A stretch of 64,000 bases of DNA, taken from positions 4,016 to 68,015 of the forward strand of contig JBEKSY010000014.1 in assembly GCA_049516595.1 (NCBI GenBank), read 5' to 3'. Each line of letters opens with the position of its first letter. Position 1 is the first letter of the stretch. The DNA comes from Anaerolineales bacterium. Its GTDB lineage: Bacteria; Chloroflexota; Anaerolineae; Anaerolineales; RBG-16-64-43. Below, piece after piece: positions 8,590-62,691 of the stretch. The notes beneath the pieces were generated by a model. That model was given only the letters and a program-made list of their open reading frames with translations, made no database searches and was not told the origin of the DNA. The position numbers and the translations under genes were made by a program.

Positions 8590-9503
8590 TGGGTCGCTCC
8601 GGACCAGCGGGCACACGGGACCAGATCGGCGGCGGTCTGCCAGGTGGAAACCATCGACTGCCGAGACAGCAGCGCGGCCGCCTCCAGCGGATAGGGAACA
8701 TCCAGGCGGTGATACTTGGGCCGCCCCAGGTTGGTGTAGGCCAGCAGATCCCAGCGCTTGACCGTAGGCAGTTCCCGCTGGATGAAGGCTCCCAGGGCCC
8801 GTATGTTTTCCGGATCGTCCGTGTAGCCGGGGATGATGGGTGTGCGAACCCACAGAGGAACACCTTGGGACGCCAAGAGGCGCGCGTTGTGCAAGATCAG
8901 ATCGTTGGCCGCCCCAGTGGCGGCTCGGTGTCGGTCCGGATCCATGATCTTGAGGTCATACAGGACCAGGTCCACCAAGTCGAGAATCCGTTCAAAGCGT
9001 TCGGGTGAGGCGGCGCCGCAGGTATCCAGCGCGATGTGCAGGCCCGCCCTGCGGCAGCGCGGCAGGACCTCGCTCAGGAAATCCTCCTGCAGCATAGGCT
9101 CGCCCCCGCTGAACGTGATGCCGCCGGCCGAGGTCTCGAAGAAGACCTTGTCCTTCAACAGTTCCTCCATCAGCTGCTCCGGGGTCCAGCGACGGCCAAT
9201 GACCTCCAGTGCGCCGCCTGGGCAGGCCTGGGCGCAGTCGCCGCAGACCGAACAGCGCTCCCGGTCAATGCGCATCCCGGAGGGCGTGAGGGTCAGCGCG
9301 TCGGCAGGGCAAGCGCCCAGGCAGGCGCGTGCTCCGATGCAGCGCACGTCGTACCACACCAGATCGGGCGCGGCCCGCAATCCCTCCGGGTTGTGGCACC
9401 AGGCGCAACGCAACGGGCAGCCTTTCAGGAAGACAGTCGTGCGGATGCCCGGTCCGTCTTCGGTGCTGAACTGCTGAATGTTGAAGATTAACCCGGTCGC
9501 CAT
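8586..9503 (-). CDS. glycyl-radical enzyme activating protein (radical SAM, with ferredoxin-like insert)
   Basis: GPGIRTTVFLKGCPLRCAWCHNPE contains the CX3CX2C radical-SAM cluster. It is followed by two Cys clusters (CIGARACLGACP and CSVCGDCAQACP) and a GGEP SAM-binding motif. Confidence 0.92.
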   Translation of the reverse strand: MATGLIFNIQQFSTEDGPGIRTTVFLKGCPLRCAWCHNPEGLRAAPDLVWYDVRCIGARACLGACPADALTLTPSGMRIDRERCSVCGDCAQACPGGALEVIGRRWTPEQLMEELLKDKVFFETSAGGITFSGGEPMLQEDFLSEVLPRCRRAGLHIALDTCGAASPERFERILDLVDLVLYDLKIMDPDRHRAATGAANDLILHNARLLASQGVPLWVRTPIIPGYTDDPENIRALGAFIQRELPTVKRWDLLAYTNLGRPKYHRLDVPYPLEAAALLSRQSMVSTWQTAADLVPCARWSGATQ

Positions 9504-9508
9504 ACCCG

Positions 9509-11911
9509 CTACAGCCGGTGGGCCTCTCGGGCGATGATCTCGTCCTGGATCTCCTTGCCCAATCCCACGAAATAAGCGTTGTAACCGGTGACCCGCACCA
9601 GCAGGTTGCGGTACTCATCGGGATGCTTCTGGGCCTCGCGCAGGGTGTTCGTGTCAATGACGTTTACCTGCAGACAGGTCCCGCCCACTTGGCCGTACGC
9701 GCGCAGGAGCCCCGCAATCTTCTCCCGCTGCTCGGGATCGCGCAGCAGGGAGGGGCTGAAGCTCATGGTGTGGCTCGCGCCGTTGGGGGCCGTTCTCAGA
9801 TCCAACTGCCCAACGCTCTTGATTACGGCGGTCGGTCCCCTGCGGTCTGCCCCGTTGACTGGGCACACCGCGTTCGAGAGGAACTGGCCGCGGCGGCGGC
9901 CGTCGGGTGTGGCGGCGGTCGCGGGGGCATAGGCGATCCAGTAGTTCCAGGAAAGGTAGCCGGCGCGATAACGCTTGCCGGTGGGAGCCGTGTGGCGGAA
10001 GGCTTCCTCCGTCCAGAAGCGGCTCACCTCGCGCGCCAGCTCGTCGGCTTCCGGGTCATCGTTGCCATACTTGGGGGCCTGATGGAGCAGCATCTGGCGC
10101 AGGCTCTCGTGCCCCTCGAAGTTGGCGCGCAGGGCGGCCAGGAGCTGAGACATTCCCAAGCGCCGATCCGCAAAAACCAGCTTGCGCACGGCGGCCAGGC
10201 TGTCGGCAGCGGTTGCCAGAGCGACCCCCTCCACCGTCAGGTAGCTAAAGCGGGCACCGCCGGCGTTCGCATCCCGGCCTGTTTCCAGGCAGCCGCCCAC
10301 CAGGGCGCTGACATAGGGCACGGGCTCCCAGCGCGCCCGCCCCGCATCCGCGAGGTTGTTCACGCGAATGATCCACCCCAGCAGGTGGCGGAGCTGCGTC
10401 AGGAAGGCCTGGCGGAAGTCGTCGAAGGAAGCGAAGGTTGTAGGGTCACCGGTGCGAGGGCCAATCTGGCGATCGGTTTGCATGTCGCGGCCATCATTCA
10501 GGGCGAGTTCCACGGCCTTCGCCAGATTCAGGTTGACGTCCACGGTCCCGGAGCGGTCGTCGCCCGCCAGGGTATTCTCCAGGCAACCCACCGGGGCGTA
10601 GTCCCACAGGCGGCCTTCGGGCAGCCCTTCCCAACGGAGTCCGGCGATCGCGTTTTCGTCGAAGTTGAGGAGAAAGGGCGAGCCCTGTGCCCCCGCCAGC
10701 ATTTCCACGATGCGCCGAAGCAGCCGATCCGGGGTGCGAGCGTGGAGGCGGATATTGGGCTTGGGCTCCAGCAGGTTAATCTCCTGGATGACCTCCAGCA
10801 TCAGGTAGGTGAGATCGTTTGAGGCGTCGTCCCCGTGCTCATCGGTCCCGCCGAGGGTGATCAGTTGACCAAAGGAGGAGTTGATGCCTTGACTTGTTCC
10901 TGTCCAGCCCTGGTAGTCGTAGACGTAGTTGTGCTTGATCCACCAGCATTCAAGCCACTCCTTGGCCTGGGCGCGCGTCAGGCGGCCTGCCACCAGGTCC
11001 GCCTGGTAGTAAGGTCGAAGGTACTGATCCACACGTCCTGGCGAGACCCCGGGGCCCGGATAGCTTTCCGCGGCGAGGAGCAGCATGTGGGTGGTCCAGA
11101 GCGCCTGCAGGGCTTCGGGGAAGGTTTCGGGCGGAAGCCAAGGGACCTTGCGCACGATGCGGGCGATTTCCCGAAGCTCTTCCCGGCGGGCCGGACTGGC
11201 TTCGCCCTGGGCCAATCGATCCGCTTCCGCGGCATATCGCTCGGTGAGCAGGCGCACCCCCTCAGCGCAAATGACGACGGCGCGGGCCTGGTCGCGCTGT
11301 TCGCGCGTGCTGGCCCGATCGTCAGCCATCGCTTGAGCCTCATCCCGAATTCCTTTCCAGCCGAGGCGCAGAGCCTTCGGGTAGTCGGGCACGAGATGAC
11401 CCGGCACGGCCGCGCAGTTTCCAACCCCCACGTCGTTGAGCGCGTGCCATTCTTTGAGGAACCTCTGCTCCTCCCGATCTCGGGCGCGGGCCTCTCCTTT
11501 CTTCAGGCAGCGAGAGAGGGCCGTGGAGAAATGGGAACCGACGATCAGCTCCCCTTCCAGAATCTGGACCGGCAGATCGTGGCTCACGACCTCACGGAAG
11601 AAAAGAGCTTGTCGCACGGCGAGCGGCTGCTCCCAGAATGCTGCTGGGAGTTGCACCCGCGCGGCCGCAGCCAGGAGATAGGACCGGAATCCTTTCTGGA
11701 ACAGGGCGACTTCTGGAACGTTCGTCCAGCTCCAGATCGAATAGACCATATCCCAGGGTGTGCCGGTGGTGTAGGACCGGACCTCGTTCGTATACTCCCG
11801 TTCGTAGAAGGACCAGAACTGGTCGCGCAGCTTCTTCACGCGGGGCGAGAGCGTGGGCGCGGCCGTCCATAGATCGGAAGGGGAAAGAGCGGCGCAGGAA
11901 TCCACAATCAT
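9509..11911 (-). CDS. glycyl radical enzyme (PFL2 / dehydratase-lyase type), substrate unknown
   Basis: 800 aa. The C-terminal glycyl-radical motif is RVTGYNAYF (Gly776, codon 9584-9586). The Cys loop is VGCLEN (Cys443, codon 10583-10585) with Glu two residues later, as in the GCVE loop of GRE eliminases. RBS GGAGGG lies upstream of the ATG at 11911. Confidence 0.92.
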   Translation of the reverse strand: MIVDSCAALSPSDLWTAAPTLSPRVKKLRDQFWSFYEREYTNEVRSYTTGTPWDMVYSIWSWTNVPEVALFQKGFRSYLLAAAARVQLPAAFWEQPLAVRQALFFREVVSHDLPVQILEGELIVGSHFSTALSRCLKKGEARARDREEQRFLKEWHALNDVGVGNCAAVPGHLVPDYPKALRLGWKGIRDEAQAMADDRASTREQRDQARAVVICAEGVRLLTERYAAEADRLAQGEASPARREELREIARIVRKVPWLPPETFPEALQALWTTHMLLLAAESYPGPGVSPGRVDQYLRPYYQADLVAGRLTRAQAKEWLECWWIKHNYVYDYQGWTGTSQGINSSFGQLITLGGTDEHGDDASNDLTYLMLEVIQEINLLEPKPNIRLHARTPDRLLRRIVEMLAGAQGSPFLLNFDENAIAGLRWEGLPEGRLWDYAPVGCLENTLAGDDRSGTVDVNLNLAKAVELALNDGRDMQTDRQIGPRTGDPTTFASFDDFRQAFLTQLRHLLGWIIRVNNLADAGRARWEPVPYVSALVGGCLETGRDANAGGARFSYLTVEGVALATAADSLAAVRKLVFADRRLGMSQLLAALRANFEGHESLRQMLLHQAPKYGNDDPEADELAREVSRFWTEEAFRHTAPTGKRYRAGYLSWNYWIAYAPATAATPDGRRRGQFLSNAVCPVNGADRRGPTAVIKSVGQLDLRTAPNGASHTMSFSPSLLRDPEQREKIAGLLRAYGQVGGTCLQVNVIDTNTLREAQKHPDEYRNLLVRVTGYNAYFVGLGKEIQDEIIAREAHRL

Positions 11912-44266: not shown

Positions 44267-45277
44267 GTGGAAGGAAGAACGGATCCTGAAAACAGAACGC
44301 CGATGGAACGCGTCCTGTACGAAGTGAAGAAAGTGATCGTTGGGCAGGATCACTTGCTGGAACGGTTGGCGGTCGCCCTGCTGGCACGCGGACATATCCT
44401 CGTGGAAGGGGTTCCGGGGCTGGCGAAGACGATGGCCATCAAGACGCTGGCGGAAGCGATTGGCGTCGAATTCAAGCGCATCCAGTTCACGCCGGATCTG
44501 GTGCCCGCCGATTTGATCGGCACACGCATCTACAACCAAAAAACAGGCGAATTCAATACCTCGCTGGGCCCGGTCTTCACCAACCTACTGCTCGCGGATG
44601 AAATCAACCGAGCGGCGGCGAAGGTGCAGAGCGCTCTGCTGGAGGTCATGCAGGAGCGGCAAGTGACGATCGGTCGCGAGACCCACAAAGTGCCGGATCC
44701 CTTCTTGGTGCTGGCCACGCAGAATCCCATCGAGACTGAAGGAACCTACCCGTTGCCCGAGGCGCAGGTGGACCGCTTTATGCTCAAGGTGTTGGTCGGC
44801 TATCCGAGCACAACGGAGGAATTTGTTATCGTCGAGCGGATGACGGGCGCCTTGCAGGCCCTGCAGAAGGTTCTGACCAGCGCGCAATTGCTGCGGCTCC
44901 AGCAGGAAGCCGACCGAGTGTACGTCGACCCGGCGCTCATTGAGTTTGCCGTGCGCATGGTGACCGCGACCCGCAAGCCGGGAGAACTGGGCTTGAGTGA
45001 ATTGGCAAAATACATCATGTTTGGCGCGAGCCCGCGCGCTTCCATTAACCTGATCCTCACCGCACGGGCCCTCGCTTTCGTGCGGGGACGCGACTACGTC
45101 CTGCCGCAAGACGTTCTGGACATGGCTCTGGACGTGATGCGCCACCGGCTCGTGCTTTCGTACGAGGCGCTTTCGGACAACGTGACTGCCGATATGCTGC
45201 TGCAAAAGATACTCGACCGAATTCCGATCCCTGTGGTGCCCTTGCATGAGCATGCCGACGTCCGCCTCAACGCCTGA
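44267..45277 (+). CDS. MoxR-family AAA+ ATPase
   Basis: Walker A GVPGLAKT, Walker B LLADEINRA, and the ATQNPIE..GTYPLPEAQ.DRF sensor region. The GTG start lies 6 nt after AAGGAGG. Confidence 0.92.
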   Translation: MEGRTDPENRTPMERVLYEVKKVIVGQDHLLERLAVALLARGHILVEGVPGLAKTMAIKTLAEAIGVEFKRIQFTPDLVPADLIGTRIYNQKTGEFNTSLGPVFTNLLLADEINRAAAKVQSALLEVMQERQVTIGRETHKVPDPFLVLATQNPIETEGTYPLPEAQVDRFMLKVLVGYPSTTEEFVIVERMTGALQALQKVLTSAQLLRLQQEADRVYVDPALIEFAVRMVTATRKPGELGLSELAKYIMFGASPRASINLILTARALAFVRGRDYVLPQDVLDMALDVMRHRLVLSYEALSDNVTADMLLQKILDRIPIPVVPLHEHADVRLNA

Positions 45278-46145
45278 ACGCATCCTACATCGTCTCGATT
45301 GGAAAGTCATACGCCGCCTGGACGGGGTTCTTCAAGGCGATTACCGCAGCCTCTTCTATGGCTACGGGGTGGATTTTGCGGACCTGCGCGAATATCAACC
45401 CGGGGATGACATCCGCTATATGGATTGGAACGTGACCGCGCGAATGAACACGCCGTATGTGCGGCAGTACCACGAAGACCGCGAGATCACAGCCTGGTTC
45501 CTCCTGGATCTCAGCCCTTCCGTCGATTTTGGCACGGTGGATAATCTGAAGCGGACGGTTCTGATTGACTTCGTGGTCACACTCGCGCGGCTGTTGACGC
45601 GTCACGGTAACCGCGTGGGTGCAGTTTTCTTTGGCTCCCGCGTCGAACGGACGATTCCGGCGCGAGGGGGGCGGATCCAGACGTTGCGCTTGGCCAATGA
45701 TCTGCTCCGGCAGCCGCGCTTGCCTCGCGCTCCGTTTACGAACCTGAAGCCGCTGCTGGAATGGGGACTGCACGCCATCAAGAGACGATCCCTGGTGTTT
45801 GTGGTCTCGGATTTCATCTGCGAGCCGGGCTGGGAGGCTCCCCTGAGCCTGCTCACCCGGAAGAACGAAGTCCTGGCGGTGCGCCTGTGGGATCCCCGGG
45901 AGATGGAACTTCCCGATATCGGTGCCGTTTTCATGGAGGATGCGGAGACGGGCGAACAGCTGTATGTGGACACGCACGATGCGGGATTTCGGAGGCAGTT
46001 TGCAGAGGGCGCGTCGCGGCGCGAAGCTAATCTGGGGCGGGCATTTAAGCGTGCCGGGGTTGACGTGCTGTCGATCTCGACCGAAGAGGACCTGGTCAGC
46101 GCAATCGTGCGCTTCGCCAGCTCCAGGCAGCATCGCAGAAAGTAA
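45246..46145 (+). CDS. DUF58 domain-containing protein
   Basis: G.DFADLREYQPGDDIRYMDWNVTAR signature of DUF58, in the position following MoxR. The start is uncertain (it overlaps the MoxR end by 32 nt). Confidence 0.85.
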   Translation: MSMPTSASTPERILHRLDWKVIRRLDGVLQGDYRSLFYGYGVDFADLREYQPGDDIRYMDWNVTARMNTPYVRQYHEDREITAWFLLDLSPSVDFGTVDNLKRTVLIDFVVTLARLLTRHGNRVGAVFFGSRVERTIPARGGRIQTLRLANDLLRQPRLPRAPFTNLKPLLEWGLHAIKRRSLVFVVSDFICEPGWEAPLSLLTRKNEVLAVRLWDPREMELPDIGAVFMEDAETGEQLYVDTHDAGFRRQFAEGASRREANLGRAFKRAGVDVLSISTEEDLVSAIVRFASSRQHRRK

Positions 46146-46159
46146 CTTCAGGCCTTCTC

Positions 46160-47176
46160 ATGTCCTTCCTCTGGCCCGCCGTGCTCTTCTTGCTGCTTCT
46201 GCTTCCGCTGGGGGTTGTGCTGTACTTGCGCTGGCAGCAGCAACGGTGGCGGCTTGCCGCCCGCTACGGCAATTTTGGGCTCGTGCAGGAGACGGGGGGG
46301 CGCCGCTTGGGATGGCGCCGGCACATTCCTCCGGCTCTCTTTCTGACGGGCCTGGCGATCCTGACGATCGGATTGGCGCGCCCGCAAACGGTTCTCAGTC
46401 TTCCCCGGGAAGAGGGCACGGTCATCTTAGCCTTCGACGTTTCCGGGAGCATGGCGGCGAGTGACGTCCAGCCCACTCGGATGGAGGCGGCGAAGGCGGC
46501 AGCGCGGGACTTCGTGCATCGACAGCCCACCAGCGTGCAGATCGGAGTTGTCGCCTTCAGTGACAGCGCCTTTTCGGTGCAGACGCCGACCGACAACCAG
46601 GATGCGATCCTAGCGGCGATCAACCGCCTTGCGCCGCAGCGCGGCACCTCGATCGCGCAGGGGCTTCTTGCTTCCCTCAATTCGATTGCCGTAGCCACGG
46701 GTCAGGCTGGGCAAGCACCGAATCTCTACTCGAACCTGCCGCCGAACCCTGCCCCTACGCCGACGCCGGTCCCTAAGGGAATGTACACGTCCGCCGTCAT
46801 TATCCTGCTCAGCGACGGAGAGAACAACGAGAACCCGGATCCGCTGGTCCCAGCCCAGCTGGCAGCCACACGCGGCGTGCGCATCTACACAGTCGGGATT
46901 GGGAGTCCAGCGGGAACCACTCTGCACATCAACGGCTTTACTGTCCACACTCAGCTGGACGAGCTCACATTGAAACAGATTTCGCAGGTCACGGGGGGCA
47001 CCTATTACAGCGCGCAGAGCGAGGAAGACTTGCGCACGATCTACGAAAACCTCGACCGCGAGCTCGTGGCCAAGCCGGAAAAGACGGAAGTCACATCTCT
47101 TTTTGCGGGAGCCAGCATCTTTCTCCTTCTGATCGGGGGTGCCTTGTCACTCCTGTGGTTCAGCCGCATGCCGTGA
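46160..47176 (+). CDS. VWA domain-containing protein (BatA-like)
   Basis: N-terminal TM segment, MIDAS motif LAFDVSGSM, and a C-terminal TM segment. Confidence 0.85.
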   Translation: MSFLWPAVLFLLLLLPLGVVLYLRWQQQRWRLAARYGNFGLVQETGGRRLGWRRHIPPALFLTGLAILTIGLARPQTVLSLPREEGTVILAFDVSGSMAASDVQPTRMEAAKAAARDFVHRQPTSVQIGVVAFSDSAFSVQTPTDNQDAILAAINRLAPQRGTSIAQGLLASLNSIAVATGQAGQAPNLYSNLPPNPAPTPTPVPKGMYTSAVIILLSDGENNENPDPLVPAQLAATRGVRIYTVGIGSPAGTTLHINGFTVHTQLDELTLKQISQVTGGTYYSAQSEEDLRTIYENLDRELVAKPEKTEVTSLFAGASIFLLLIGGALSLLWFSRMP

Positions 47177-47207
47177 TGCGGATGGCGAATACCTAAAGGT
47201 GCCCGAG

Positions 47208-48323
47208 ATGCAACGGATCGACTTCCTTTGGCCCGGCTTTCTCGCCTTGCTGGCGTTGATTCCTCTGATCGTCGCGGCTTATGTTCTGGTCCTGCGGCGG
47301 CGCCGGCGATTTGCGGTGCGCTTCTCCAGCTTGGCTTTGGTGCGGGAGGCGATTCCCCGCCAGTCCTGGCTGCGGCGCCATCTGCCATTTGCCCTGTTTC
47401 TCCTCGCTCTGGCGAGCCTGGTGATCGCTCTGGGACGCCCGGCGGCTGTCGTGAGTCTTCCCAGCGGACAAACCACGGTCATCCTCACCCTGGATGTTTC
47501 CGGAAGCATGCGCTCGACAGACATTCAGCCCTCGCGTCTGGGGGCGGCAGAGGCTGCCGCGCTGTCGTTCATTCAGCGCCAGAAAGCCACCACCCAAATC
47601 GGGATCGTCGCGTTCTCTGAGTTCGCGGAACTGATCCAAGCGCCCACGACGGATCAGGAAGCATTGCAAGCTGCGATCGAGAGCTTGACTACCGGACGCC
47701 GGACGGCGATCGGCAGTGGCATTCTCAAGTCGTTGGACGCGATTGCCGAGGTGGACAAGAACGTTGCGCCGAGCGTGACCGATCCCTCCTCCGGGGTCGA
47801 GCCCCCACCGGTGGCCCCAGGGGCCTACGCGCCCGACATCATTGTGCTGCTGACTGATGGGGTGAGCAATGCAGGTCCAGCGCCGCTCGATGCCGCCAAG
47901 CAGGCGATGGACCGGGGGGTTCGCATCTACACGATCGGCTTTGGTACGGCCAACGGATTCATGCCATTCGGCGGCCAAGCCCCCCAGGGTGGCGGCCTGT
48001 TTGGAAATGGGGGCGGATTTGGCGGGGGCAATCCAGGTTTCGGTGGGCAGGGGTTTGGCGGCGGAGGATTTGGAGGAGGATTTGGAGGAGGATTTCGCAC
48101 TGGAATTGACGAGGCGACCCTAAAGCAAATTGCCTCGATGACCGGCGGAACTTATCACTCCGCAGCAAGTGCGAGTGAATTGCAGAGTGTTTTCCAGGAT
48201 CTCCCGACCTATCTGGTTACCAAACACGAGCTTCAGGAACTCAGCGTGATCTTTGCGGCCCTGGGCGCGCTCCTGGCACTGGCAGCGATCAGCCTCTCCC
48301 TGGTCTGGCACCCACTGCCCTGA
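47208..48323 (+). CDS. VWA domain-containing protein (BatB-like) with Gly/Phe-rich insert
   Basis: N-terminal TM segment, MIDAS motif LTLDVSGSM, a low-complexity stretch GGGLFGNGGGFGGGNPGFGGQGFGGGGFGGGFGGGF, and a C-terminal TM segment. Start trimmed to the ATG at 47208. Confidence 0.85.
   Translation: MQRIDFLWPGFLALLALIPLIVAAYVLVLRRRRRFAVRFSSLALVREAIPRQSWLRRHLPFALFLLALASLVIALGRPAAVVSLPSGQTTVILTLDVSGSMRSTDIQPSRLGAAEAAALSFIQRQKATTQIGIVAFSEFAELIQAPTTDQEALQAAIESLTTGRRTAIGSGILKSLDAIAEVDKNVAPSVTDPSSGVEPPPVAPGAYAPDIIVLLTDGVSNAGPAPLDAAKQAMDRGVRIYTIGFGTANGFMPFGGQAPQGGGLFGNGGGFGGGNPGFGGQGFGGGGFGGGFGGGFRTGIDEATLKQIASMTGGTYHSAASASELQSVFQDLPTYLVTKHELQELSVIFAALGALLALAAISLSLVWHPLP
48060..48095 (+). repeat. 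3 x 12-nt tandem repeat inside VWA gene
   Basis: GGCGGAGGATTT followed by GGAGGAGGATTT twice, encoding the reiterated GGGF units. Confidence 0.8.
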
Positions 48324-50555: not shown

Positions 50556-50727
50556 TCTTTCTCTCCCTCCTGGTCTACAAGTGACTCCTCTTTCCCGGAG
50601 CTCCTCGATGCTCGAGCTTCAGGTCAAACTTGCCAGTCTTGCGCCCATGCCTCCTTCCCTTCTTGTTGACAGTCCTCTGTCGCGATCCCCTTGCGCTGTC
50701 CATACGATGCCACCGATTGCGAGCCGA

Positions 50728-50759
50728 GGAAAGCAAAAGGGTCCCCCTGGGGGGGACCC
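50728..50759 (-). terminator. strong intrinsic terminator with no recognisable upstream CDS
   Basis: On the minus strand, a 9-bp all-but-one G:C stem GGGTCCCCC / GGGGGACCC with a 3-nt loop is followed by TTTTGCTTTCC. Confidence 0.6.
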
Positions 50760-50845
50760 CCGCACTATCGAAGAGAAAGGAGGACCCGATCACACGGAGC
50801 GAGCCACCGCTGTTGGTGCACCTCGCCTCCTGCCGCACTTTCCCA
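50728..50845 (-). ncRNA. candidate small RNA or cis-regulatory leader (promoter-to-terminator unit, ~115 nt)
   Basis: Bounded by the promoter at 50851-50878 and the terminator at 50728-50759. Internal pairing is possible between AGGAGG and CCTCCT, enclosing the hairpin GCGAG-CACC / GGTG-CTCGC. It also contains an 18-codon GTG mini-ORF (VHQQRWLAPCDRVLLSLR). Confidence 0.3.
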
Positions 50846-50850
50846 GGGCT

Positions 50851-50878
50851 AGTATAGCGCCAGAGCCCGCTAAGTCAA
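50851..50878 (-). promoter_or_regulatory. near-consensus sigma-70-type promoter (minus strand)
   Basis: On the minus strand, TTGACT (50878-50873), a 16-nt spacer, then TATACT (50856-50851). Only one mismatch each to TTGACA and TATAAT, in an otherwise GC-rich context. Confidence 0.45.
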
Positions 50879-51822
50879 GCAAATCCAATGAGCGGGACAA
50901 CTGGAGAGCCCCTCGGCTCGCTGAATCGATCGTGCCTGACCCTTCAGGGAAAACTCCCGTCTTCCCGGCATGCCGGGGCTCAACCTAGCTATCGTCTCTC
51001 CAGGGTGCCGAGGCCGGGAGAGAGCCCTTGGCGAAGTTCCAGAGGCCGGGCACGCGGGTCTGCATCAACGATCCGGCCAACAGAATCCGCTATGATTTCC
51101 GACGGGCATCCCCATGCCGGAAGGATCGGGAGCAATTGGTCCTGGGTTTCAAGCAAATAGGTTTTCCCGCCTTTCCCATTCCGGGGACATTGCGCTGGTC
51201 TTAGGGTGTCGAATTGTCTTGGGTGGCGGACCTTTTGCAGAGTACTCTTGGATCGGGTTGTGGGAAGGACCGCGGCTCGGGCCATCCGGCAGGAATTGCA
51301 CGCATCGTGAGAGCAAACCCCGCCAGTCATGGCGGTCGTGACCATATACTGACTGGGTCCAGATGCCTTCCAATCGACACTAGGCGTAACTTGCCGGAGG
51401 GGCAGGGCGCGTTTCTGTCTCGTGACTGCCTCGGGCTCAATTCGGTGGAAGGTGGATGCTCAGGCCCGTTGTTGTTTGCCAGGCGCGGGAGATGTGACCG
51501 CAGCAATAGGATCCGCTTCGGCTCTTGAATCAAGCAGGTCTCGACGGGAGACTTGGCAGGCCGGGGAGGCTAGGATTGGGCTGATCGGATCGACAAGGAA
51601 GGGGCCCTGACCTCCTGGGGATCTCCTCTCTTGCTTGAACCGTGGCACAATAGCCGAAATGGGCCCCGCCTCCAAGTGGGCTGGATTCTTGGATGGATTC
51701 GGACAATCGATTAGGGAGCCTGCCCAGCAGAATCATGATGAGAGGCTGGCCGGGATTTGGGAGGCACTTTCAGTCGCTCGCCGCGGGTGTCCGTTCATTC
51801 TCTTGCTGCTCAACCTAAGCTC

Positions 51823-52578
51823 ATGGCCACCGGCTCCGTTTTCGACGTCAGGGAGTTTACGGTTCATGACGGGCCGGGAATCCGCACCACGGTCTTCTTG
51901 AAAGGTTGTCCTCTTCGATGTGCCTGGTGCCACAACCCGGAGGGTCAGTCGCGGGACCCGCAGCCGATGAGAAGCCGGGCCGGGACTCGACAGGTAGGGA
52001 TCGAGTATGCCTCTGGTGAGCTGGCCGACATCCTGAATCGTCAGTCTGTGATCCTGCGCCCGAATGAGGGCGGGGTTACTTTTTCGGGGGGTGAGCCGCT
52101 GATGCAGGCCGGTTTTGTTGCGGAGGTGATTGATCGACTGGAGGATTTGCATGTGCTGTTGGACACCTCGGGCTACGGCACCGAACGTGATCTGCGCCTG
52201 CTTTTGGATCGCGTCGACATGGTGTATTACGATTTGAAACTGATTGATGAAGGAGCGCACATCCACCACACCGGGTGCTCCAACCGTCCAATTCTGAGCA
52301 ATCTGCAGGTGCTGAGCAGGAGCGGCGTCCCGTTTGTCGTGCGCGTACCCCTCGTGCCGGGGCTGACGGATACGGATGAGAACTTGGCCGGGATCGCCCA
52401 GGCGATCAAGAACCTGCCCGGGCTGATGCATGTCGATCTCCTTCCGTACAACCGCGCGGCGGGAGCGAAGTACGGGGCGGCGGGAATGGAGTTTCACCCC
52501 GAGTACGATGAGGCTCATCCGGTCCGTGTGAATAGCCGAGTGTTCCTCGAGGCTGGAATGAAGGTGCGTCTGGCATGA
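51823..52578 (+). CDS. glycyl-radical enzyme activating protein (PflA-like, no ferredoxin insert)
   Basis: MATGSVFDVREFTVHDGPGIRTTVFLKGCPLRCAWCHNPEG, then directly ...GVTFSGGEPLMQ. The two extra Cys clusters seen in the 8586-9503 paralog are absent. The start is set by alignment with that paralog (both begin MATG). Confidence 0.9.
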   Translation: MATGSVFDVREFTVHDGPGIRTTVFLKGCPLRCAWCHNPEGQSRDPQPMRSRAGTRQVGIEYASGELADILNRQSVILRPNEGGVTFSGGEPLMQAGFVAEVIDRLEDLHVLLDTSGYGTERDLRLLLDRVDMVYYDLKLIDEGAHIHHTGCSNRPILSNLQVLSRSGVPFVVRVPLVPGLTDTDENLAGIAQAIKNLPGLMHVDLLPYNRAAGAKYGAAGMEFHPEYDEAHPVRVNSRVFLEAGMKVRLA

Positions 52579-54668
52579 ACCCGAGAATTGAAAGACTGAA
52601 ACTGCGGGTGCGTGATGGCGAACACCGCCCCCTTCGCGGGCAGGAACCTCTCCGCCTCCTCGAGGAATGTGAAGAGGAGCATCTGTCCTGGTCGAGGCGC
52701 GTGGCGCGATTGACCGTCCGTCAATGCGAGGCCGAGATCGTCGTGGTTTCTCCTGACGAGCGCATCGTGTTCACCCGCACCCTGCCAGCCACTGTCCCCG
52801 CCGTCTACTCGGGGGACGAATGGGATCGCCTTACCATGGGACGGACGTTGCACGAACTGGGACCGATCAGCAATATCTGTGCCGACTGGGGGAAGGTCCT
52901 TTCACAAGGCCTACTGGGGCGGCGGAAAGTCGCTCTGGCCTCCCGCAGTCGATGCCGTGAACACTCGGAGGCCGTCGAATTCCTGGAGGGTGCCATCGAG
53001 TCAATCGATGCCGTCCTGGCGCTGGCGGCGCGCTACGCCGAGACCGCCCGTCGCATGGGCCGTGGCGAGATTTTCGAGATCCTCACCCGGGTCCCCGCGC
53101 AGCCGCCGCGCACATTTCACGAGGCCCTGCAGTCCCTGCGTCTGATGCACGCCGTGGTCTGGCTGGGAGGCAACTACCATGTGGGGCTGGGTCGATTTGA
53201 TCAGTACATGTGGCCGTACCTGAAGGCCGACCTCGAGCAGGGACGCCTGGACGAGGCCGAGGCTTTCGATCTTCTGGCCGAATTCTTCATCTCGCTGAAC
53301 AAAGACAGTGACCTCTACCCCGGAGTCCAACAGGGGGATAACGGGCAAACCATCACACTGGGCGGCATGGACGGGGCGGGCAATCCTGCAGTCAACCCGT
53401 TGACCTCCCTGGCGCTGCATGTGTCCCGGGATGTGTGTTTGATCGATCCCAAGATCAACCTGCGCATTTCCGCGAGCACAGATCTCGAGCTGCTCACATT
53501 GGCAACGGAGTTGACGCGCAAGGGATTGGGATTCCCTCAATACTGCAATGATGACGTCGTGATCCCGGGCCTGGTGGCGTGCGGCTACCGTCTGGAGGAT
53601 GCCCGGGATTATGCCATCGCGGCCTGTTGGGAATTCCTGGTCCCGGGGAAGGCCATGGACGTTGTCAATATCGGGGCGGTATCCTTTCCCGCCGCCGTGG
53701 ACCAGGCCCTCCGAGATGGGTTCTCGGCTGGCGAGGATATGCCGCAGATGCTCCAGCGCGTGAAAGGGAACATCGCCCAGCAGGTAAGCGATCTGGCCTG
53801 CGCCTACGAGCGCCTGCTTCTGCCGCCCGCCCCGTACTATTCGGTCCTGATGACAGACTGCCTGGAGGAGGGGCGCGACATCTCGGAAGGGGCCCAATAC
53901 AACAACTTCGGAATCCACGGAGCCGGCTCGGCGAATGCCGCTGATGCGCTGGCAGCCATCCAGGAGTTTGTGTTCCGGGAAAAGAGCGTTCAGCCAAGGG
54001 AAATTCTGGCCGCCCTGGATGCCGATTACGAGGGTTTCGAGGATTTGCGGGTGAAGCTGGCAGAGAAGGGGCCCAAGACAGGAAACGATGACGATCGGGC
54101 AGATCGCTTCCTGGTCGCATTGTTCCAGATGCTGGCGGAGGCCTGTGAGGGCTATGGAACCACCAGCCGAAAAGGAATCCTGCGTCCGGGATCAGGCTCG
54201 GCGATGTATTACCTCTGGCTGGCGCAGGGCCACCCAGGCATGCGTGAGCCGCAGGTGGGCGCAACCGCAGAGGGGCGTTGCAGCGGCCGACCCTTCGGAG
54301 CGAATCTGGCTCCCTCTCAGGGGGTGCAAATCCGCGGCCCGTTCAGTCTGCTTCTTTCCTACAGTAAACTGGACTACCGGCGAATCTGCAACGGCGGACC
54401 GATCACGATGGAACTCTCCGACTCGGTTTTTCGAGATGACGAGTCGGTGCGCAAGGTGTCTCTCCTAATCCGAGCGTTCGCCCAGCTGGGGTGTCAGCAG
54501 TTGCAACTCAACAGCGTCAATGTCGAGACTCTTCGGGATGCCAAGATCCATCCGGAGCTTCACAAGAACCTGATTGTCCGTGTGTGGGGCTGGAGCGGGT
54601 ATTTCTGCGAGCTCGCCCCCGAGTACCAGGATCAGATCATCGGGCGCCATGTGTTTGCGGCCGGGTGA
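52575..54668 (+). CDS. glycyl radical enzyme, short form (697 aa), substrate unknown
   Basis: The C-terminal glycyl motif is RVWGWSGYF (Gly672, codon 54588-54590). The Cys loop is ARDYAIAACWEF (Cys351, codon 53625-53627) with Glu at +2. The ATG overlaps the activase stop (ATGA at 52575-52578). Confidence 0.88.
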   Translation: MNPRIERLKLRVRDGEHRPLRGQEPLRLLEECEEEHLSWSRRVARLTVRQCEAEIVVVSPDERIVFTRTLPATVPAVYSGDEWDRLTMGRTLHELGPISNICADWGKVLSQGLLGRRKVALASRSRCREHSEAVEFLEGAIESIDAVLALAARYAETARRMGRGEIFEILTRVPAQPPRTFHEALQSLRLMHAVVWLGGNYHVGLGRFDQYMWPYLKADLEQGRLDEAEAFDLLAEFFISLNKDSDLYPGVQQGDNGQTITLGGMDGAGNPAVNPLTSLALHVSRDVCLIDPKINLRISASTDLELLTLATELTRKGLGFPQYCNDDVVIPGLVACGYRLEDARDYAIAACWEFLVPGKAMDVVNIGAVSFPAAVDQALRDGFSAGEDMPQMLQRVKGNIAQQVSDLACAYERLLLPPAPYYSVLMTDCLEEGRDISEGAQYNNFGIHGAGSANAADALAAIQEFVFREKSVQPREILAALDADYEGFEDLRVKLAEKGPKTGNDDDRADRFLVALFQMLAEACEGYGTTSRKGILRPGSGSAMYYLWLAQGHPGMREPQVGATAEGRCSGRPFGANLAPSQGVQIRGPFSLLLSYSKLDYRRICNGGPITMELSDSVFRDDESVRKVSLLIRAFAQLGCQQLQLNSVNVETLRDAKIHPELHKNLIVRVWGWSGYFCELAPEYQDQIIGRHVFAAG

Positions 54669-54743
54669 TTTTCCGAATTGAGGAAGCCGGTCCGCCGGAG
54701 GGAGCGGGAGCCTGGCCGCCTCAGGCAGGCGCAGGGGCCCTCA

Positions 54744-56084
54744 ATGCCTGACTGGAGGATGCGCGTGTCACCTGGTTTCACCTTTCAAGTCGATGACAGG
54801 GTGAGCTTGACTTTCCGGATTCTCAATGAGCTGGTCAGCGACAAGCCGGCTCTCCGCGTGAGTTTCCGCCTTTGGAACGGGAGCCTGTGGCCAGATGATG
54901 CCTCCCGCCAGGCAACGCTGGTGCTCAAGCATCCGGGCGCGCTGCGGGCGATCTTCCTGCCTGGCACTGAACTGGGGATGGGGGAAGCCTATCTCTACGA
55001 TGATTTCGACATCGAGGGCGATGTTGAACAGGTCCTTGCTCTTGCCGACGCCCTCTCTCAGGCCAAGTCCGGCCTCCTGAAGAAACTCCGTCTGGCCCGG
55101 GAACTGGTGAAGTTGCCCAAGGCGGAGACAAACCGACCCCGATCGAGTCGGCGCGGCCCGGCCCGGCTGGCCGGACGGCCGCATTCGCTGGCCCGCGACC
55201 GCCAAGCCGTGACCTATCACTACGACGTTTCCAATGATTTCTACGCCTTGTGGCTCGACCGGCGCTTGATCTATTCGTGCGCCTATTTCTTATCGCCTGG
55301 GGATGACCTGGACACGGCCCAGGAGCAGAAGCTGGAATACCTCTGCCGCAAGTTGCGCCTGCGCCCGGGCCAGCGTTTGCTGGACATCGGCTGCGGGTGG
55401 GGCGGTCTAGTGATGTACGCCGCCCAAAGCTGCGGGGTGGACGCGACCGGGATCACCCTCAGTCAGCCTCAGGCCGATCTGGCGCAGGAGCGAATTCGGG
55501 CCGCGGGTCTCTCGGGCCGCTGTCGGGTCGTAGTGCGAGACTACCGGGAAATGGATGAACCGGAAAGCTTCGATGCCATGGTCAGCGTTGGGATGTTCGA
55601 GCACGTCGGCGCCGCCATGCTGCCGACCTACTTTGCCAGGGCGTATCGCCTGCTGAAACCGCAGGGGGTGTTTCTCAACCATGGAATTGCCTGCCGCTCG
55701 GCCGATGCCGGCCCTCAGGGCGGGGCGAGTTTCAGCCAGGCCTACGTCTTCCCCGACGGCGAACTGGAGCCCATTAATGTGCCCCTGCGGGCGGCTGAAG
55801 ACAGCCACTTTGAAGTGCGCGACGTGGAAAGCCTGCGCGAACACTATGCGCTCACGCTTCGCCAGTGGGTAAGGCGCCTGGAAGCGCATCACACACAAGC
55901 GCTTGGCTGGGTGGACGAACCCACCTACCGGACCTGGAGGCTTTTCATGGCCGCCTCAGCCTACGGGTTTTCCTCGGGGCGGCTCAACGTTTATCAAACC
56001 CTGCTGGTCAAACCGGATGAGGGTGGGCGAAGCGCTCTCCCCCTGACCCGGTCCGACTGGTATCGATCCGCAAAGCCCGGGTGA
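54744..56084 (+). CDS. cyclopropane-fatty-acyl-phospholipid synthase family SAM-dependent methyltransferase
   Basis: YDVSNDFY..WLD....YSCAYF and SAM motif LLDIGCGWGG, then MFEHVG and a C-terminal ...REHYALTLRQW typical of the CMAS family. The start is uncertain: ATG at 54744 or TTG at 54678. Confidence 0.88.
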   Translation: MPDWRMRVSPGFTFQVDDRVSLTFRILNELVSDKPALRVSFRLWNGSLWPDDASRQATLVLKHPGALRAIFLPGTELGMGEAYLYDDFDIEGDVEQVLALADALSQAKSGLLKKLRLARELVKLPKAETNRPRSSRRGPARLAGRPHSLARDRQAVTYHYDVSNDFYALWLDRRLIYSCAYFLSPGDDLDTAQEQKLEYLCRKLRLRPGQRLLDIGCGWGGLVMYAAQSCGVDATGITLSQPQADLAQERIRAAGLSGRCRVVVRDYREMDEPESFDAMVSVGMFEHVGAAMLPTYFARAYRLLKPQGVFLNHGIACRSADAGPQGGASFSQAYVFPDGELEPINVPLRAAEDSHFEVRDVESLREHYALTLRQWVRRLEAHHTQALGWVDEPTYRTWRLFMAASAYGFSSGRLNVYQTLLVKPDEGGRSALPLTRSDWYRSAKPG

Positions 56085-59218: not shown

Positions 59219-61657
59219 TCAGCGCAATTCTGCTTCTGCCCCCATCACGGCATGCACGATGTGAGGCCCACCCATTCGGTCCGGCGGGACGACATTCCCC
59301 TCGATCGCACGGCCGTCCAGGCGGACGGACACGACGCCCCGGCAAACGTGAAGGGGGTTTTCCACCGAGATCTCATACCGCGCGCCCCGGAACCTGCGGG
59401 TCATCTGGAAACCGTTCCAGGCGTGGGGAATGCAAGGGTTGATCTCCAGGCCGTTGTATGTGGCACGGACCCCAAGGATGTGCTGGGTGGCGGCCTGATA
59501 GGCCCACGACGCCGTGCCCGAGAGCCAGCTGTTGCGGGCCAGTCCAAACTGCGGATGTTCGTCGCCCAAGATGTTTTGGGCGTAGACGTACGGCTCGCAC
59601 TCGTAGATCTCAATCAGGTCATTGCGCGCGGCCGGATTGATCTCGGAATAGTATTCAAAGGCGCGATCGCCGTTGCCCAGGATCGTTTCCGCGATGACCG
59701 CCCACGGATTGGGATGCAAGAAGATGCCGCCGTTTTCCTTGGTGCCGGGTGGAAAGGTCGTCACGCCCCCGTACTGGGGGTCGAACCCGTTGTAACTGGG
59801 TGCGGCAAGCTTGATACCGAATCTCGTGTTCAACCTCCCATAGACGGCGTCCATCGCCTTTCGGGCGCGATCAGGGGATGCAAAACCTGAGATGACCGGC
59901 CAGGATTGGCCGTTGAGATAGATCTGCGCGTATGTGTTCTTCGAAGAGCCGAGAGGGGTTCCCTCCTCGTCGAAATAGCGGACATACCATTCGCCGTCCC
60001 AGGCGGTGGCCTCCACGATGGAGCGCATGCGCTCGTACGCGGCGCGGTATTCCTCGGCCAGGGAAACCTCCCCCAGGTGCTCAAGCAGCGCGATCATCTC
60101 CAGGAGAGCCTTCCCGTACAAGTTGGCGGTGAAGAGGGATTCGGATCCGGCCGGCAGATTGACCGTGTCGTTCCAGTCGGCGAATCCGAGCCGGGGCAGG
60201 CCGTGCTGGCCGACATCGCGGGCGGTAAAGGCCAGGCCGCGCTTCATGTGCTCAAGCACGGTGCCTGGCTCCGGCACCCGGTCGGGTTCGCCCTTCCCAT
60301 AGAAGGGGACGACCTCCTCGATCAGAGCAAGGCCCCCCGTCTCCTTCAGGTAGGCCGTGACCGCCAGGAGGGTCCAGAGGTGGTCATCGCTGTAATAGTG
60401 CGGGCGGTCCGGCCTCTCCAGCGAGTCGCCGCAACTGGCTTCCCGGGTGAGCGGATTGAACTGGTGCATCGCGGAGCCGTCCTGCACTTGGAAGGACAGA
60501 AGGTTGAGCAGGAGGGTTCGCGCCTCACCGGGAACGGAGGCCATCACCGCCATCACGTCCTGCGACGAGTCGCGGATGCCGATGCCACGCGAGCCCAATC
60601 CGAGTTGATAGTAGGAGAGATAGCGGGACCAGGTCGTGGTGACGTAGCACTGGCGCGGATTGTAGACGTTGAGCATGGCGCTCATGCCCGGGTCCGGCGT
60701 AGTGACTTGCAGGGCCGAGAGGTACCTCTCCCAGAAGACGCGCAGCCTCCCCAGTTCCGCCTCGACCTGCTCGGGATCCCGGAAGCGCCGAATCTCCGGG
60801 AGGGCCTCCTCCACGCTGCGGGATTGGCCGAGCTGGGTGATCAGACGGCGCGTCGCGCCAGGCGGCAGCGTCCCCAGAGGATGAAGCAAAGCGGCGAGGT
60901 TGTCTCCGCGCAAGGCGAGCGAGTTGCCCAGCTCGGGTTGAAGAAGACTCCGGGGGGTCTGGAAGCTGCCGTATTCATTGTCGCCCAGAAAACGTTTGCG
61001 GTCGGTCTCAAAGGACGAGGGCCGCCGGTTGGAGGTAAGGTAGTTGACCCGGGTGTCCCGATACATGAAAGGGTACTGAATCAAGATGAGCAGATCCCCG
61101 TCTTGAATCATCTGGCTTTGCATGGTCTGCGGAACCCAGTCCGCGTTGGTGAACTGGCGGAGGGCGTCGGGATGGGTGTACTCAACCACGGGGATCGCGT
61201 CGACCGCAACCGGGGCGGCGCGGAGATTCGTGACCTGGATGTCTCGCAGTTCGCAATGGGCGCCGAGCGGCACAAAGATGGTGCAGTCTGTGCGCAGGCC
61301 CTGGCACTCCGTCACGAGGCGCGTGTAACCCAGGCCGACATGGCATTCGAAGCGCTCAAGAACCCCGAGCCCGGGGACCAAGAAGGGGGCGAGCACGGAG
61401 TATCCGCCTTGTGCAGGAACCCGCAAGTAGAGCGTCTCGCCTTTGAAGTCGGAACTGGGCGTCTGCTGAATGTACTTGGTGATCCGATTGAAGGTGGGAT
61501 CGTCCCTGCAAATCAGAGCGCCCCCGGTGTGATCGACAAACCCGCCGAACGAACGCGTGCCGATGTAGTTGATCCACTTGACCGGAGTGTGTGGGTCGGT
61601 GATGACGTACTCGCGGCGAAGTTCGTCGAAGAAACCGTATTGCATGGCCAAGCTCAC
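59219..61657 (-). CDS. GH94 glycoside phosphorylase (cellobiose / chitobiose phosphorylase-like)
   Basis: MQYGFFDELRREYVITDPHTPVKWINYIGT... N-terminus and a length of about 810 aa are typical of GH94 cellobiose phosphorylase. The GTG at 61657 overlaps the GH5 stop (GTGA). The ATG at 61645 is an equally plausible start. Confidence 0.9.
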   Translation of the reverse strand: MSLAMQYGFFDELRREYVITDPHTPVKWINYIGTRSFGGFVDHTGGALICRDDPTFNRITKYIQQTPSSDFKGETLYLRVPAQGGYSVLAPFLVPGLGVLERFECHVGLGYTRLVTECQGLRTDCTIFVPLGAHCELRDIQVTNLRAAPVAVDAIPVVEYTHPDALRQFTNADWVPQTMQSQMIQDGDLLILIQYPFMYRDTRVNYLTSNRRPSSFETDRKRFLGDNEYGSFQTPRSLLQPELGNSLALRGDNLAALLHPLGTLPPGATRRLITQLGQSRSVEEALPEIRRFRDPEQVEAELGRLRVFWERYLSALQVTTPDPGMSAMLNVYNPRQCYVTTTWSRYLSYYQLGLGSRGIGIRDSSQDVMAVMASVPGEARTLLLNLLSFQVQDGSAMHQFNPLTREASCGDSLERPDRPHYYSDDHLWTLLAVTAYLKETGGLALIEEVVPFYGKGEPDRVPEPGTVLEHMKRGLAFTARDVGQHGLPRLGFADWNDTVNLPAGSESLFTANLYGKALLEMIALLEHLGEVSLAEEYRAAYERMRSIVEATAWDGEWYVRYFDEEGTPLGSSKNTYAQIYLNGQSWPVISGFASPDRARKAMDAVYGRLNTRFGIKLAAPSYNGFDPQYGGVTTFPPGTKENGGIFLHPNPWAVIAETILGNGDRAFEYYSEINPAARNDLIEIYECEPYVYAQNILGDEHPQFGLARNSWLSGTASWAYQAATQHILGVRATYNGLEINPCIPHAWNGFQMTRRFRGARYEISVENPLHVCRGVVSVRLDGRAIEGNVVPPDRMGGPHIVHAVMGAEAELR

Positions 61658-62691
61658 CGGCGGGAAATGATGGCGATCAGCTCCTGGCTGACAACCTGCC
61701 CGCCCTCGTCCACCAGGCCGAAATCCATGGCCTTGTAGGTCCAGTAGGCGCGGCCGATCCCGAATCCGTGCAGCAGATCAATCAGGTCTCGAGTCCAGTT
61801 CAGGCGAGTGGTCAGGTCGGCTTGCTCGTAGACGCCGAACTCGCCGCAATAGACCGGCTGGTTCGTGCGCAGGGAGAAGTCCAAGCACGGTTGGAGTTCA
61901 GATTGGAGGTACCAGCAGTCGAATCGTTTTCCGACCTCGGCTCCCAGTCGATCGCGGTGCTCGGGGTGGGCCTGCAGGAAAGCCTCCAAGCCGGGCGCAA
62001 ATCCCGGGTAGTCGATCGGGCGGTCATACTCCACCAGAGCCTGGATCCAGGGCGCTTTCTGGTGGGTCACGACCAGGGGGGCGTAGAAGTGGAACGTGAA
62101 GAGGATGTTCGGATCGGGAGTGACTTCCAGGCTGCTCAGCTGGCCGGGCGCATTGTAACGGTTGGCTCCGATGACGATCAATCGCTGAGCATCCTCCTTG
62201 CGGATCATCGCCACGGCCCGTCGAACCAACGCGTTCCAGGGATCGCTGGTGGGCAGGAAAACTTCATTGAGCAGTTCAAAGGCCAGCCCGTCCTCCATCT
62301 GAGCGCAGAAACGGTGGGTCATGGTATGCCAGAGCGCCAGAAAGCGTTCTTGCAGGGCGGGGCTCCCGAAGAGCAGGCTTTCAACCGGGGCTTCGAAGGT
62401 GTAGCCGGGTGCTTTGTGAAGGTCGAGGATGACGCGCAGCCCGTTTTCCTGGCACCAATCCAGGCAGGATTCAACGTATCCCAATCCGCTCTCACTGGAA
62501 ACACCCGCCCGAGGCTCGTCCTGGAGCAGGGGGTAATCGACTGGCAGTCGGATGTGATCAAACCCCCAGCCGGCAATCCGTTTGATGTCCTCGGCGGTGA
62601 TGAAGGAATCAAAGTGCCGCTGGTCGCTAGTCGGGTATTGTGATAACCACCCGCCTAGATTCACCCCGACTTGAAGTTTCTCCCGATCCAT
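61654..62691 (-). CDS. glycoside hydrolase family 5 (cellulase-like), no signal peptide
   Basis: GVNLGGWL...GFDHIRLPV, a LLNE catalytic acid/base context (FELLNEV) and GEFG nucleophile context (YCGEFGV). The N-terminus MDREKLQVGVN is not hydrophobic. Confidence 0.88.
   Translation of the reverse strand: MDREKLQVGVNLGGWLSQYPTSDQRHFDSFITAEDIKRIAGWGFDHIRLPVDYPLLQDEPRAGVSSESGLGYVESCLDWCQENGLRVILDLHKAPGYTFEAPVESLLFGSPALQERFLALWHTMTHRFCAQMEDGLAFELLNEVFLPTSDPWNALVRRAVAMIRKEDAQRLIVIGANRYNAPGQLSSLEVTPDPNILFTFHFYAPLVVTHQKAPWIQALVEYDRPIDYPGFAPGLEAFLQAHPEHRDRLGAEVGKRFDCWYLQSELQPCLDFSLRTNQPVYCGEFGVYEQADLTTRLNWTRDLIDLLHGFGIGRAYWTYKAMDFGLVDEGGQVVSQELIAIISRR

Follow-up and report, generated by a model that had tools for sequence, protein, structure and literature searches.

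In a 64,000-nucleotide stretch of an Anaerolineales genome (GenBank assembly GCA_049516595.1, contig JBEKSY010000014.1, positions 4,016 to 68,015 of the forward strand; hereafter the window), a gene for a 697-amino-acid glycyl radical enzyme (GRE) directly follows the gene for a radical S-adenosylmethionine (SAM) enzyme that would activate it, the activase. On balance, we judge the pair to be intact and under selection, to belong to a large clade of compact GREs (~640–745 amino acids) with a sugar-linked substrate, and to have been relocated in the Anaerolineales lineage. GREs perform chemically hard anaerobic reactions, and to our knowledge the majority of GRE sequence clades are still without a known function. 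Coordinates and motif positions within the window were taken from a list of open reading frames (ORFs) and a motif script, and the genes and motifs at issue are as follows.

51823–52578, + strand: GRE-activating radical SAM enzyme, 251 amino acids (Pfam Radical_SAM and Fer4_12; TIGR02494)
52575–54668, + strand: compact GRE, 697 amino acids (PFL-like, E 1e-98; Gly_radical, E 4e-17)
53619–53636, + strand: Cys loop AACWEF, with predicted thiyl-radical residue Cys351 and predicted general base Glu353 in a C-x-E motif (motif script, alignment)
54579–54605, + strand: glycyl radical loop RVWGWSGYF, with predicted radical site Gly672 (Pfam, motif script, alignment)
54744–56084, + strand: CMAS-family SAM-dependent methyltransferase, 446 amino acids, with an N-terminal DUF7884-like region (PF02353, E 7e-87)

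The gene layout reported in a first-pass annotation of the window, made from the sequence alone, holds throughout this block. The activase stop and GRE start share the ATGA at 52575–52578, the CMAS-family gene begins 75 nt past the GRE stop on the same strand, and the motif script places Cys351-Trp-Glu353 in AACWEF and Gly672 in RVWGWSGYF, the residues that the annotation had picked out. Because homologs of the activase align from its residue 1, the ATG at 51823 is its true start. Measured against two related loci, L005 and L006 (GREs 92% and 85% identical to that of the window), the activase, GRE, and CMAS-family genes are all under purifying selection (dN/dS 0.11–0.26; 0.15–0.18 for the methyltransferase), which rules out a pseudogene or relic activase–GRE pair. 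The activase–GRE pair and the methyltransferase gene are real and intact.

The annotation had also drawn attention to the shortness of the GRE, which falls 103 amino acids below the 800-residue GRE encoded elsewhere in the window (9509–11911). A protein search with the compact GRE found over 5,000 relatives; our length and identity statistics come from the 120 best of these, which are 658–710 amino acids long (nearly all 695–705) and 67–92% identical to the query. In an alignment of 35 homologs, residues M1 and N2 are invariant, as are Cys351 and the family-invariant Trp352 and Phe354. Since the homologs match in both length and start, the short length is a family trait and not an artifact, and a truncated gene or mis-called start is ruled out. 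The missing residues are mostly at the N-terminus, where residue 101 of the GRE aligns with residue 173 of PflD.

Within these bounds the protein has the hallmarks of the superfamily: an RVxG[FYW] motif in its Gly_radical domain (PF01228, 63 bits against a cut-off of 22.2), a mid-barrel Cys in its PFL-like domain (PF02901, 332 bits against 24.3), and an adjoining radical SAM activase. The first-pass annotation had asked whether so short a GRE could hold a complete barrel. In an AlphaFold2 model (mean pLDDT 82, pTM 0.86), five strands, the Cys loop, five further strands, and the Gly hairpin follow one another, and the ten-stranded beta/alpha barrel is predicted to be complete. In Foldseek, the full length of the model aligned with CutC, glycerol dehydratase (GD), and PflD, at query-normalized TM-scores of 0.80–0.82 and 22–26% identity. 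Residues 549–583 (window 54219–54323) contain a family-specific insertion of ~8 residues (WLAQGHPGMREPQ) ahead of a conserved GATAEGR strand; this is the sole long region of low model confidence (pLDDT <50), yet it holds several invariant residues.

We assigned class membership by NCBIfam equivalog cut-offs, identities to proteins in the PDB, and catalytic residues, the last mapped onto GD and PflD by eye from pairwise HMMER alignments. By these measures the GRE belongs to none of the characterized GRE clades, a point on which the first-pass reading is supported: its best PDB relatives are 22–26% identical, and its scores fall far below every equivalog cut-off. It reaches 331.9 bits with TIGR01774, the PFL2/glycerol dehydratase subfamily (cut-off 678.2), 286.5 with the PflD/YbiW model NF007437 (1109), 261 with the CutC model TIGR04394 (1050), and 252 with HypD (1100); over the CutC, HypD, HpsG/HpfG, indoleacetate decarboxylase, and 4-hydroxyphenylacetate decarboxylase models, scores range from 148 to 261 bits against cut-offs of 1000–1150. 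The Cys-Cys pair of pyruvate formate-lyase is replaced by Ala350-Cys351, and the corresponding model, TIGR01255, gives 58 bits against 994. C351-W352-E353 instead provides the C-x-E motif of GRE 1,2-eliminases and isomerases, which is common to GRE eliminases and the isomerases PflD, YbiW, and HplG (PMC13450708). The June 2026 superfamily review that documents this motif (PMC13450708) does not describe the compact clade and mentions no arabinose- or corrinoid-linked GRE, and our full-text literature searches found no description of the family.

To gauge the extent of the clade we scanned 1.84 billion cluster representatives. Compact proteins of 640–745 amino acids carrying both AACWEF and RVWGWSGYF form a continuum of at least 30 clusters at 50% identity, and canonical GREs of 780–810 amino acids, with GCVEP and RVAGYSA at the equivalent positions, begin near 285 bits. 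The unusual Cys loop remarked on in the first-pass annotation is thus a clade feature, AACWEF as against the canonical GCVEP. The 574 confirmed genome matches come from Chloroflexota, Planctomycetota, Verrucomicrobiota, Kiritimatiellota, Acidobacteriota, and other phyla.

Among solved structures, the best match is to PflD and YbiW (PDB 8yjo, 8id0, 8id7; E 1.5e-75), isomerases that open the rings of 1,5-anhydromannitol-6-phosphate and 1,5-anhydroglucitol-6-phosphate. They share with the compact GRE a C-x-E Cys loop and the same predicted fold (query-normalized TM-score 0.78–0.80); PflD, whose substrate is a sugar, also shares the GRFDQY and YN motifs. The compact GRE is nevertheless only 24–26% identical to these enzymes and ~70 residues shorter at the N-terminus, its Cys loop reads ACWEF where that of PflD reads GCVEL, and the His-Asp that follows the loop in PflD is Val-Asn. 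The settings differ as well, with ABC or MFS import of free sugars around the compact family and neither phosphotransferase system (PTS) nor sugar-phosphate genes nearby. The B12-independent GD and propanediol dehydratase (PD) (PDB 1r8w, 5i2a) resemble the compact GRE in 1,2-eliminase architecture and C-x-E motif, with query-normalized TM-scores of 0.79–0.82; in a phmmer alignment to 1r8w, however, the catalytic His164 (the leaving-group acid) and Asp447 of GD correspond to Asn100 and Asn365, both family-invariant. The compact GRE also lacks the microcompartment context of GD and PD, and its activase lacks a ferredoxin-like domain. CutC (choline trimethylamine-lyase), the top Foldseek match of the model (E 5.5e-37), shares the C-x-E motif but is 22–23% identical, and the compact GRE is not accompanied by cut-cluster or microcompartment genes.

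The activase is pared down in parallel. Its CX3CX2C motif, CPLRCAWC, occupies residues 29–36 (window 51907–51930), and the protein contains only four Cys in all. Aligned with the other activase of the window (8586–9503), it shows a 44-column gap in place of a multi-cysteine ferredoxin-like insert of ~44 residues, so the first-pass reading of an insert-less activase was correct. Typical GRE activases carry such an insert, with eight extra cysteines, after the radical SAM motif; a Pfam scan of the 251-residue protein returned Fer4_12 and Radical_SAM but no Fer4 match. Among GRE activases, the ferredoxin-like domain is absent only from PFL-AE and RNR-AE according to the June 2026 review (PMC13450708). 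PflA resembles the compact activase in size (~250 amino acids), in having a radical SAM domain only, and in its N-terminal CX3CX2C motif. The activase nevertheless lies nearer to models of insert-bearing enzymes (203 bits with both TIGR02494 and the HypD activase model, 158 with the PflA model), and its partner is a C-x-E GRE rather than PFL. Its TIGR02494 match (202.8 bits against a cut-off of 174.35) is split into two stretches that flank the missing insert. Because the scores favor insert-bearing models and the match is split in this way, the comparison suggests that the ferredoxin-like insert was lost secondarily. The 251-residue form is kept, paired with the GRE, in ~60 loci, and the −4 overlap of the two genes in most of 52 loci. 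Some activases of more distant ACWE GREs are ~281 amino acids long with a weak Fer4 signal.

The sugar link emerges from the gene neighborhoods of relatives. We fetched 80 genome loci, which represent the closest relatives only and come entirely from metagenome-assembled genomes; genes were called by a simple longest-ORF method, and taxonomic labels (Bifidobacteriaceae, for example) may include binning errors. Neighboring genes were clustered and then identified by Pfam, NCBIfam, and PDB searches. Sugar transporters are present in 46, and arabinose genes in 30, of the 66 loci that span 12 kb or more; URO-D genes occur in 30 of them and a corrinoid protein gene in 25, all of these in Chloroflexi. 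No families recur more often in the two genes 3′ of the GRE than L-arabinose isomerase (araA) and alpha-L-arabinofuranosidase. The identifications are secure: neighbors score 829 bits with the AraA model (cut-off 622), 783 with ribulokinase (428), and 341 with L-ribulose-5-phosphate 4-epimerase (251), and Pfam and NCBIfam confirm the arabinofuranosidase families GH51 and GH127 as well as CUT2-type substrate-binding proteins.

Gene order varies among lineages. In Anaerolineae, a LacI regulator, a CUT2-type sugar-binding protein, an ABC ATPase, a permease, and a divergent transglutaminase-like lipoprotein are followed by three URO-D (MtaA-like) methyltransferases, a corrinoid protein, the activase, and the GRE, with L-arabinose isomerase, Zn-alcohol dehydrogenase, ribulokinase, and L-ribulose-5-phosphate 4-epimerase often 3′ of it. 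The genes from the three URO-Ds to araA/araB/araD lie on one strand with gaps of at most 50 nt in L011–L046 and other loci (for example L012:1-22079 and L016:1-22085); typical operon-like gaps are 44 nt between corrinoid protein and activase and 37 nt between GRE and araA. Planctomycetota and some Actinomycetota instead have LacI, GH127, an ABC transporter, activase, and GRE, then one or two GH51 genes, and in Verrucomicrobiota and other Planctomycetota the order is a XylR-type regulator, activase, GRE, an MFS sugar transporter, and a GH36-like protein. One Thermoguttaceae locus (L035:13500-20000) has, 3′ of the GRE, three tandem repeats of a gene pair encoding proteins of ~104–123 and 468 amino acids.

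Distant compact relatives, at 39–46% identity, mostly adjoin sugar genes too: an MFS transporter with aldose 1-epimerase; a CUT2 ABC transporter with TIM, SIS, and an AraA-like gene; a ROK-family gene; or NagA/NagB/SASA. ACWE GREs in this identity range are found in quite different settings at L085:7001-9109, L088:7001-9109, L092:1447-3513, and L087:1387-3456.

Taken from this context, the compact GRE is most likely a C-x-E-type radical C–O-cleaving enzyme acting on an imported arabinose-related sugar, and its substrate most likely an imported free monosaccharide, or a close derivative, tied to L-arabinose-rich plant glycans. Candidate substrates are L-arabinose, a pentitol or anhydropentitol, and an O-methylated sugar; candidate reactions are dehydration, ring-opening isomerization, and methyl-ether cleavage. 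A substrate with multiple hydroxyls is favored because Asn replaces the acid-base residues of GD while His448, Arg537, Glu613, Asp255, Asn256, and Gln258 are family-invariant in the alignment, because the neighborhoods combine monosaccharide import with arabinofuranosidases, and because the nearest solved relative, PflD, itself acts on a sugar.

By analogy with the GRE superfamily (PMC13450708), the reaction would begin with the radical-SAM-only activase, which would use SAM and a [4Fe-4S] cluster to take a hydrogen atom from Gly672. The Gly672 radical would pass to Cys351 as a thiyl radical, and this would attack the substrate at a carbinol carbon, removing a hydrogen atom. Deprotonation of that hydroxyl by Glu353 would give a ketyl radical able to expel the vicinal C–O leaving group, be it water, an alkoxide, or a ring oxygen, and the product radical would then regain a hydrogen atom from Cys351.

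Several points weigh against this reading. Tblastn of the neighbor cluster representatives against the window found no arabinose, transporter, URO-D, or corrinoid genes near the pair, and the sugar context is borrowed from relatives at 62–75% identity. About half of the loci have no recognizable arabinose gene within 10 kb. A bona fide araA adjoins the GRE in Anaerolineae, and the presence of the genuine enzyme argues against the GRE as a mere duplicate of arabinose isomerization. One 46%-identical relative sits in a biosynthetic-looking cluster (AMP-binding and carrier proteins, a B12-radical SAM protein, a glycosyltransferase), so the wider compact clade is not uniformly catabolic. Confidence in the structural model, finally, is low at residues 549–583, near the active-site strands.

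A broader proposal, which we put forward tentatively, is that the compact clade performs an undescribed GRE reaction on free, unphosphorylated sugars, which in Anaerolineae would be mechanistically coupled to a corrinoid methyl-transfer system. Peat, soil, and sediment bacteria would then possess a new anaerobic pathway for plant glycans that are methylated or rich in arabinose. The chemistry could consist of opening the ring of L-arabinose or a pentitol by a radical mechanism, of dehydrating either compound, or of breaking an aliphatic methyl ether on a sugar through radical cleavage. Somewhat less probable is an explanation in which the GRE family as such is coupled to corrinoid methyl transfer, for example by using radical elimination to cleave, or to prepare, an aliphatic methyl ether on a plant sugar that carries O-methyl groups. 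Under this division of labor, the three URO-D proteins and the corrinoid protein would take the methyl group, and the araA/B/D products the pentose skeleton. The order LacI, substrate-binding protein, ABC transporter, three URO-Ds, corrinoid protein, activase, and GRE, often with araA, recurs on one strand with gaps no larger than 44 nt in 25–30 of the 42 long Chloroflexi loci, and the variant arrangements in L053, L054, and L062 still keep the corrinoid gene beside the pair. The URO-D proteins resemble MtaA, and the corrinoid protein, with B12-binding and B12-binding_2 domains and 206 bits to 1y80, qualifies as a genuine partner of methyltransferases. Planctomycetota, Verrucomicrobiota, Acidobacteriota, and Actinomycetota loci, whose GREs are equally conserved, nevertheless lack URO-D and corrinoid genes, as does the window. 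Neither an MtaB-type methanol methyltransferase nor a reductive activator was seen, and we found no published GRE–corrinoid methyl-transfer link, hence no precedent, in the literature searched.

It is unlikely that the compact GRE is instead a small-diol or polyol dehydratase (for ethylene glycol, 1,2-propanediol, or glycerol) whose aldehyde product is reduced by the co-located Zn-alcohol dehydrogenase. The C-x-E motif also occurs in GD and PD, the bulky Trp352 and Phe354, both invariant, would narrow the pocket to a C2–C3 substrate, and a TIGR02822 Zn-alcohol dehydrogenase resembling the aldehyde reductase Ahr stands beside araA/araB in 13 loci. These points are set against the replacement of GD His164 and Asp447 by Asn (in the alignment read by eye) and GD/PD family scores far below cut-off. 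Moreover, neither microcompartment shell genes nor an aldehyde dehydrogenase was seen in the neighborhoods, and the dominant context is one of monosaccharide transporters and glycosidases, not of diol-producing fucose or rhamnose genes.

Least probable is the pathway proposed in the first-pass annotation, in which the GRE and the CMAS-family methyltransferase together form a new anaerobic radical route for a substrate that is lipid-like or methylated. In its favor, 75 nt separate the two same-strand genes, no terminator is predicted in that gap, the pairing is retained in L005 and L006 with both genes under purifying selection, and a PEMT-family methyltransferase lies two genes 3′ of the GRE in one Kiritimatiellota locus. 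By tblastn, however, the CMAS-family gene adjoins the GRE in just 2 of 84 loci, L005 and L006 themselves. In L007, at 75% GRE identity, the CMAS-family gene is gone and a different gene lies downstream. It occurs in 1 of the 66 related loci of at least 12 kb, and the 25 commonest Pfam families in the two genes 3′ of the GRE (loci other than L005 and L006) include no methyltransferase family. Since GREs more than 60% identical occur across phyla with no CMAS neighbor, GRE function cannot depend on the methyltransferase. Of the earlier interpretation, then, the compact, divergent C-x-E GRE with an insert-less activase stands, and the joint pathway, judged by the synteny criterion that the annotation itself had set, is not supported.

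The methyltransferase itself has a full-length CMAS domain (PF02353, 291.6 bits) and the SAM-binding motif DIGCGWG, both shared with cyclopropane fatty acid (CFA) and mycolic acid cyclopropane synthases. It differs from CFA synthases in its extra N-terminal DUF7884-like region, its lack of a conserved GRE link, and scores below every NCBIfam equivalog cut-off (CfaB, 389.7 against 650 bits; PRK11705, 243 against 400). From the distribution of gene orders, it is probably a neighbor through lineage-specific gene order and not a functional partner, and it should not guide functional prediction for the activase–GRE pair of the window. In the Kiritimatiellota locus (L029:12194-13098), the GRE is followed by a Cupin_2 protein and a PEMT-family (phospholipid methyltransferase-like) protein; two GFO/IDH/MocA oxidoreductases and an AP_endonuc_2 TIM-barrel gene lie divergently upstream. 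We considered whether this gene and the CMAS-family gene of the window reflect a recurrent methyltransferase theme and judged the coincidence anecdotal, the downstream census showing no enrichment.

The remaining surroundings of the pair bear on its relocation, and two further features flank the block.

50556–51822, no strand: ORF-poor 1.27-kb spacer 5′ of the activase, with frameshifted traces of the 237-amino-acid ORF of L006
56167–57776, − strand: two-component system, response regulator then histidine kinase (Response_reg, Trans_reg_C; HisKA, HATPase_c)

Upstream of the pair are a Bat-type DUF58/BatA operon, an acyl-CoA ligase, and then the spacer. The window's gene arrangement is common only to L005 and L006, from which we infer that the activase–GRE pair was relocated in the Anaerolineales lineage. 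Local rearrangement would have moved it from its usual operon to a position between the acyl-CoA ligase and the CMAS-family gene. The spacer, between the acyl-CoA ligase and the activase, has no ORF longer than 135 amino acids and yields, in different frames, two short matches (56% and 48% identity) to a 237-amino-acid ORF. In L006 this ORF, which has no Pfam match, is intact at the corresponding position; the spacer looks like a decayed gene. A riboswitch or other RNA was rejected as its content, no Rfam family reaching the gathering score anywhere in the window. In the Bat-type operon (45246–48323), DUF58 is followed by two BatA-N/VWA proteins, the second with a long Gly-rich low-complexity tract (GGGFGGGNPGFGGQGFGGGGFGGGFGGGF).

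Downstream come the two-component system, a Germane-domain lipoprotein, a GH94 phosphorylase, and a GH5 enzyme. The two-component system converges on the block, as previously annotated, its minus-strand genes ending 82 nt past the methyltransferase stop. It also adjoins in L005 but does not lie beside the GRE block in L006, and it is probably unrelated to the GRE. The GH94 phosphorylase (812 amino acids) and the GH5 cellulase-family enzyme (345 amino acids) occupy 59219–62691 on the minus strand, the GH5 stop overlapping the GH94 start, and are the sole carbohydrate-active gene pair near the GRE in the window. The window's second GRE (800 amino acids, 9509–11911, minus strand) is canonical and comes with a 305-amino-acid activase with a ferredoxin-like insert (8586–9503, minus strand). 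The first-pass annotation had not given the strand of this GRE. Its best NCBIfam match, HypD, is below cut-off (449 against 1100 bits), which leaves it likewise unassigned. The two GRE systems are at most 45 kb apart.

The compact clade combines high conservation with a reduced architecture, in which the N-terminus is short and the activase has a radical SAM domain only, and its members abound in uncultured Anaerolineae, Planctomycetota, Verrucomicrobiota, and Acidobacteriota of peat, soil, groundwater, and sediments, where its gene context ties it to the uptake and breakdown of arabinose-containing plant polymers. The interest of the pair thus lies in its clade and in the context of its relatives, not in the CMAS neighbor. 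It poses the question of whether a C-x-E GRE can be activated without a ferredoxin-like domain. The most intriguing lead is the tight URO-D/corrinoid linkage in Anaerolineae, whose loci might provide the first example of a GRE functionally connected to corrinoid methyl transfer, and identifying the substrate would bring a further reaction into the picture of how carbohydrates are turned over anaerobically in carbon-rich wetlands.

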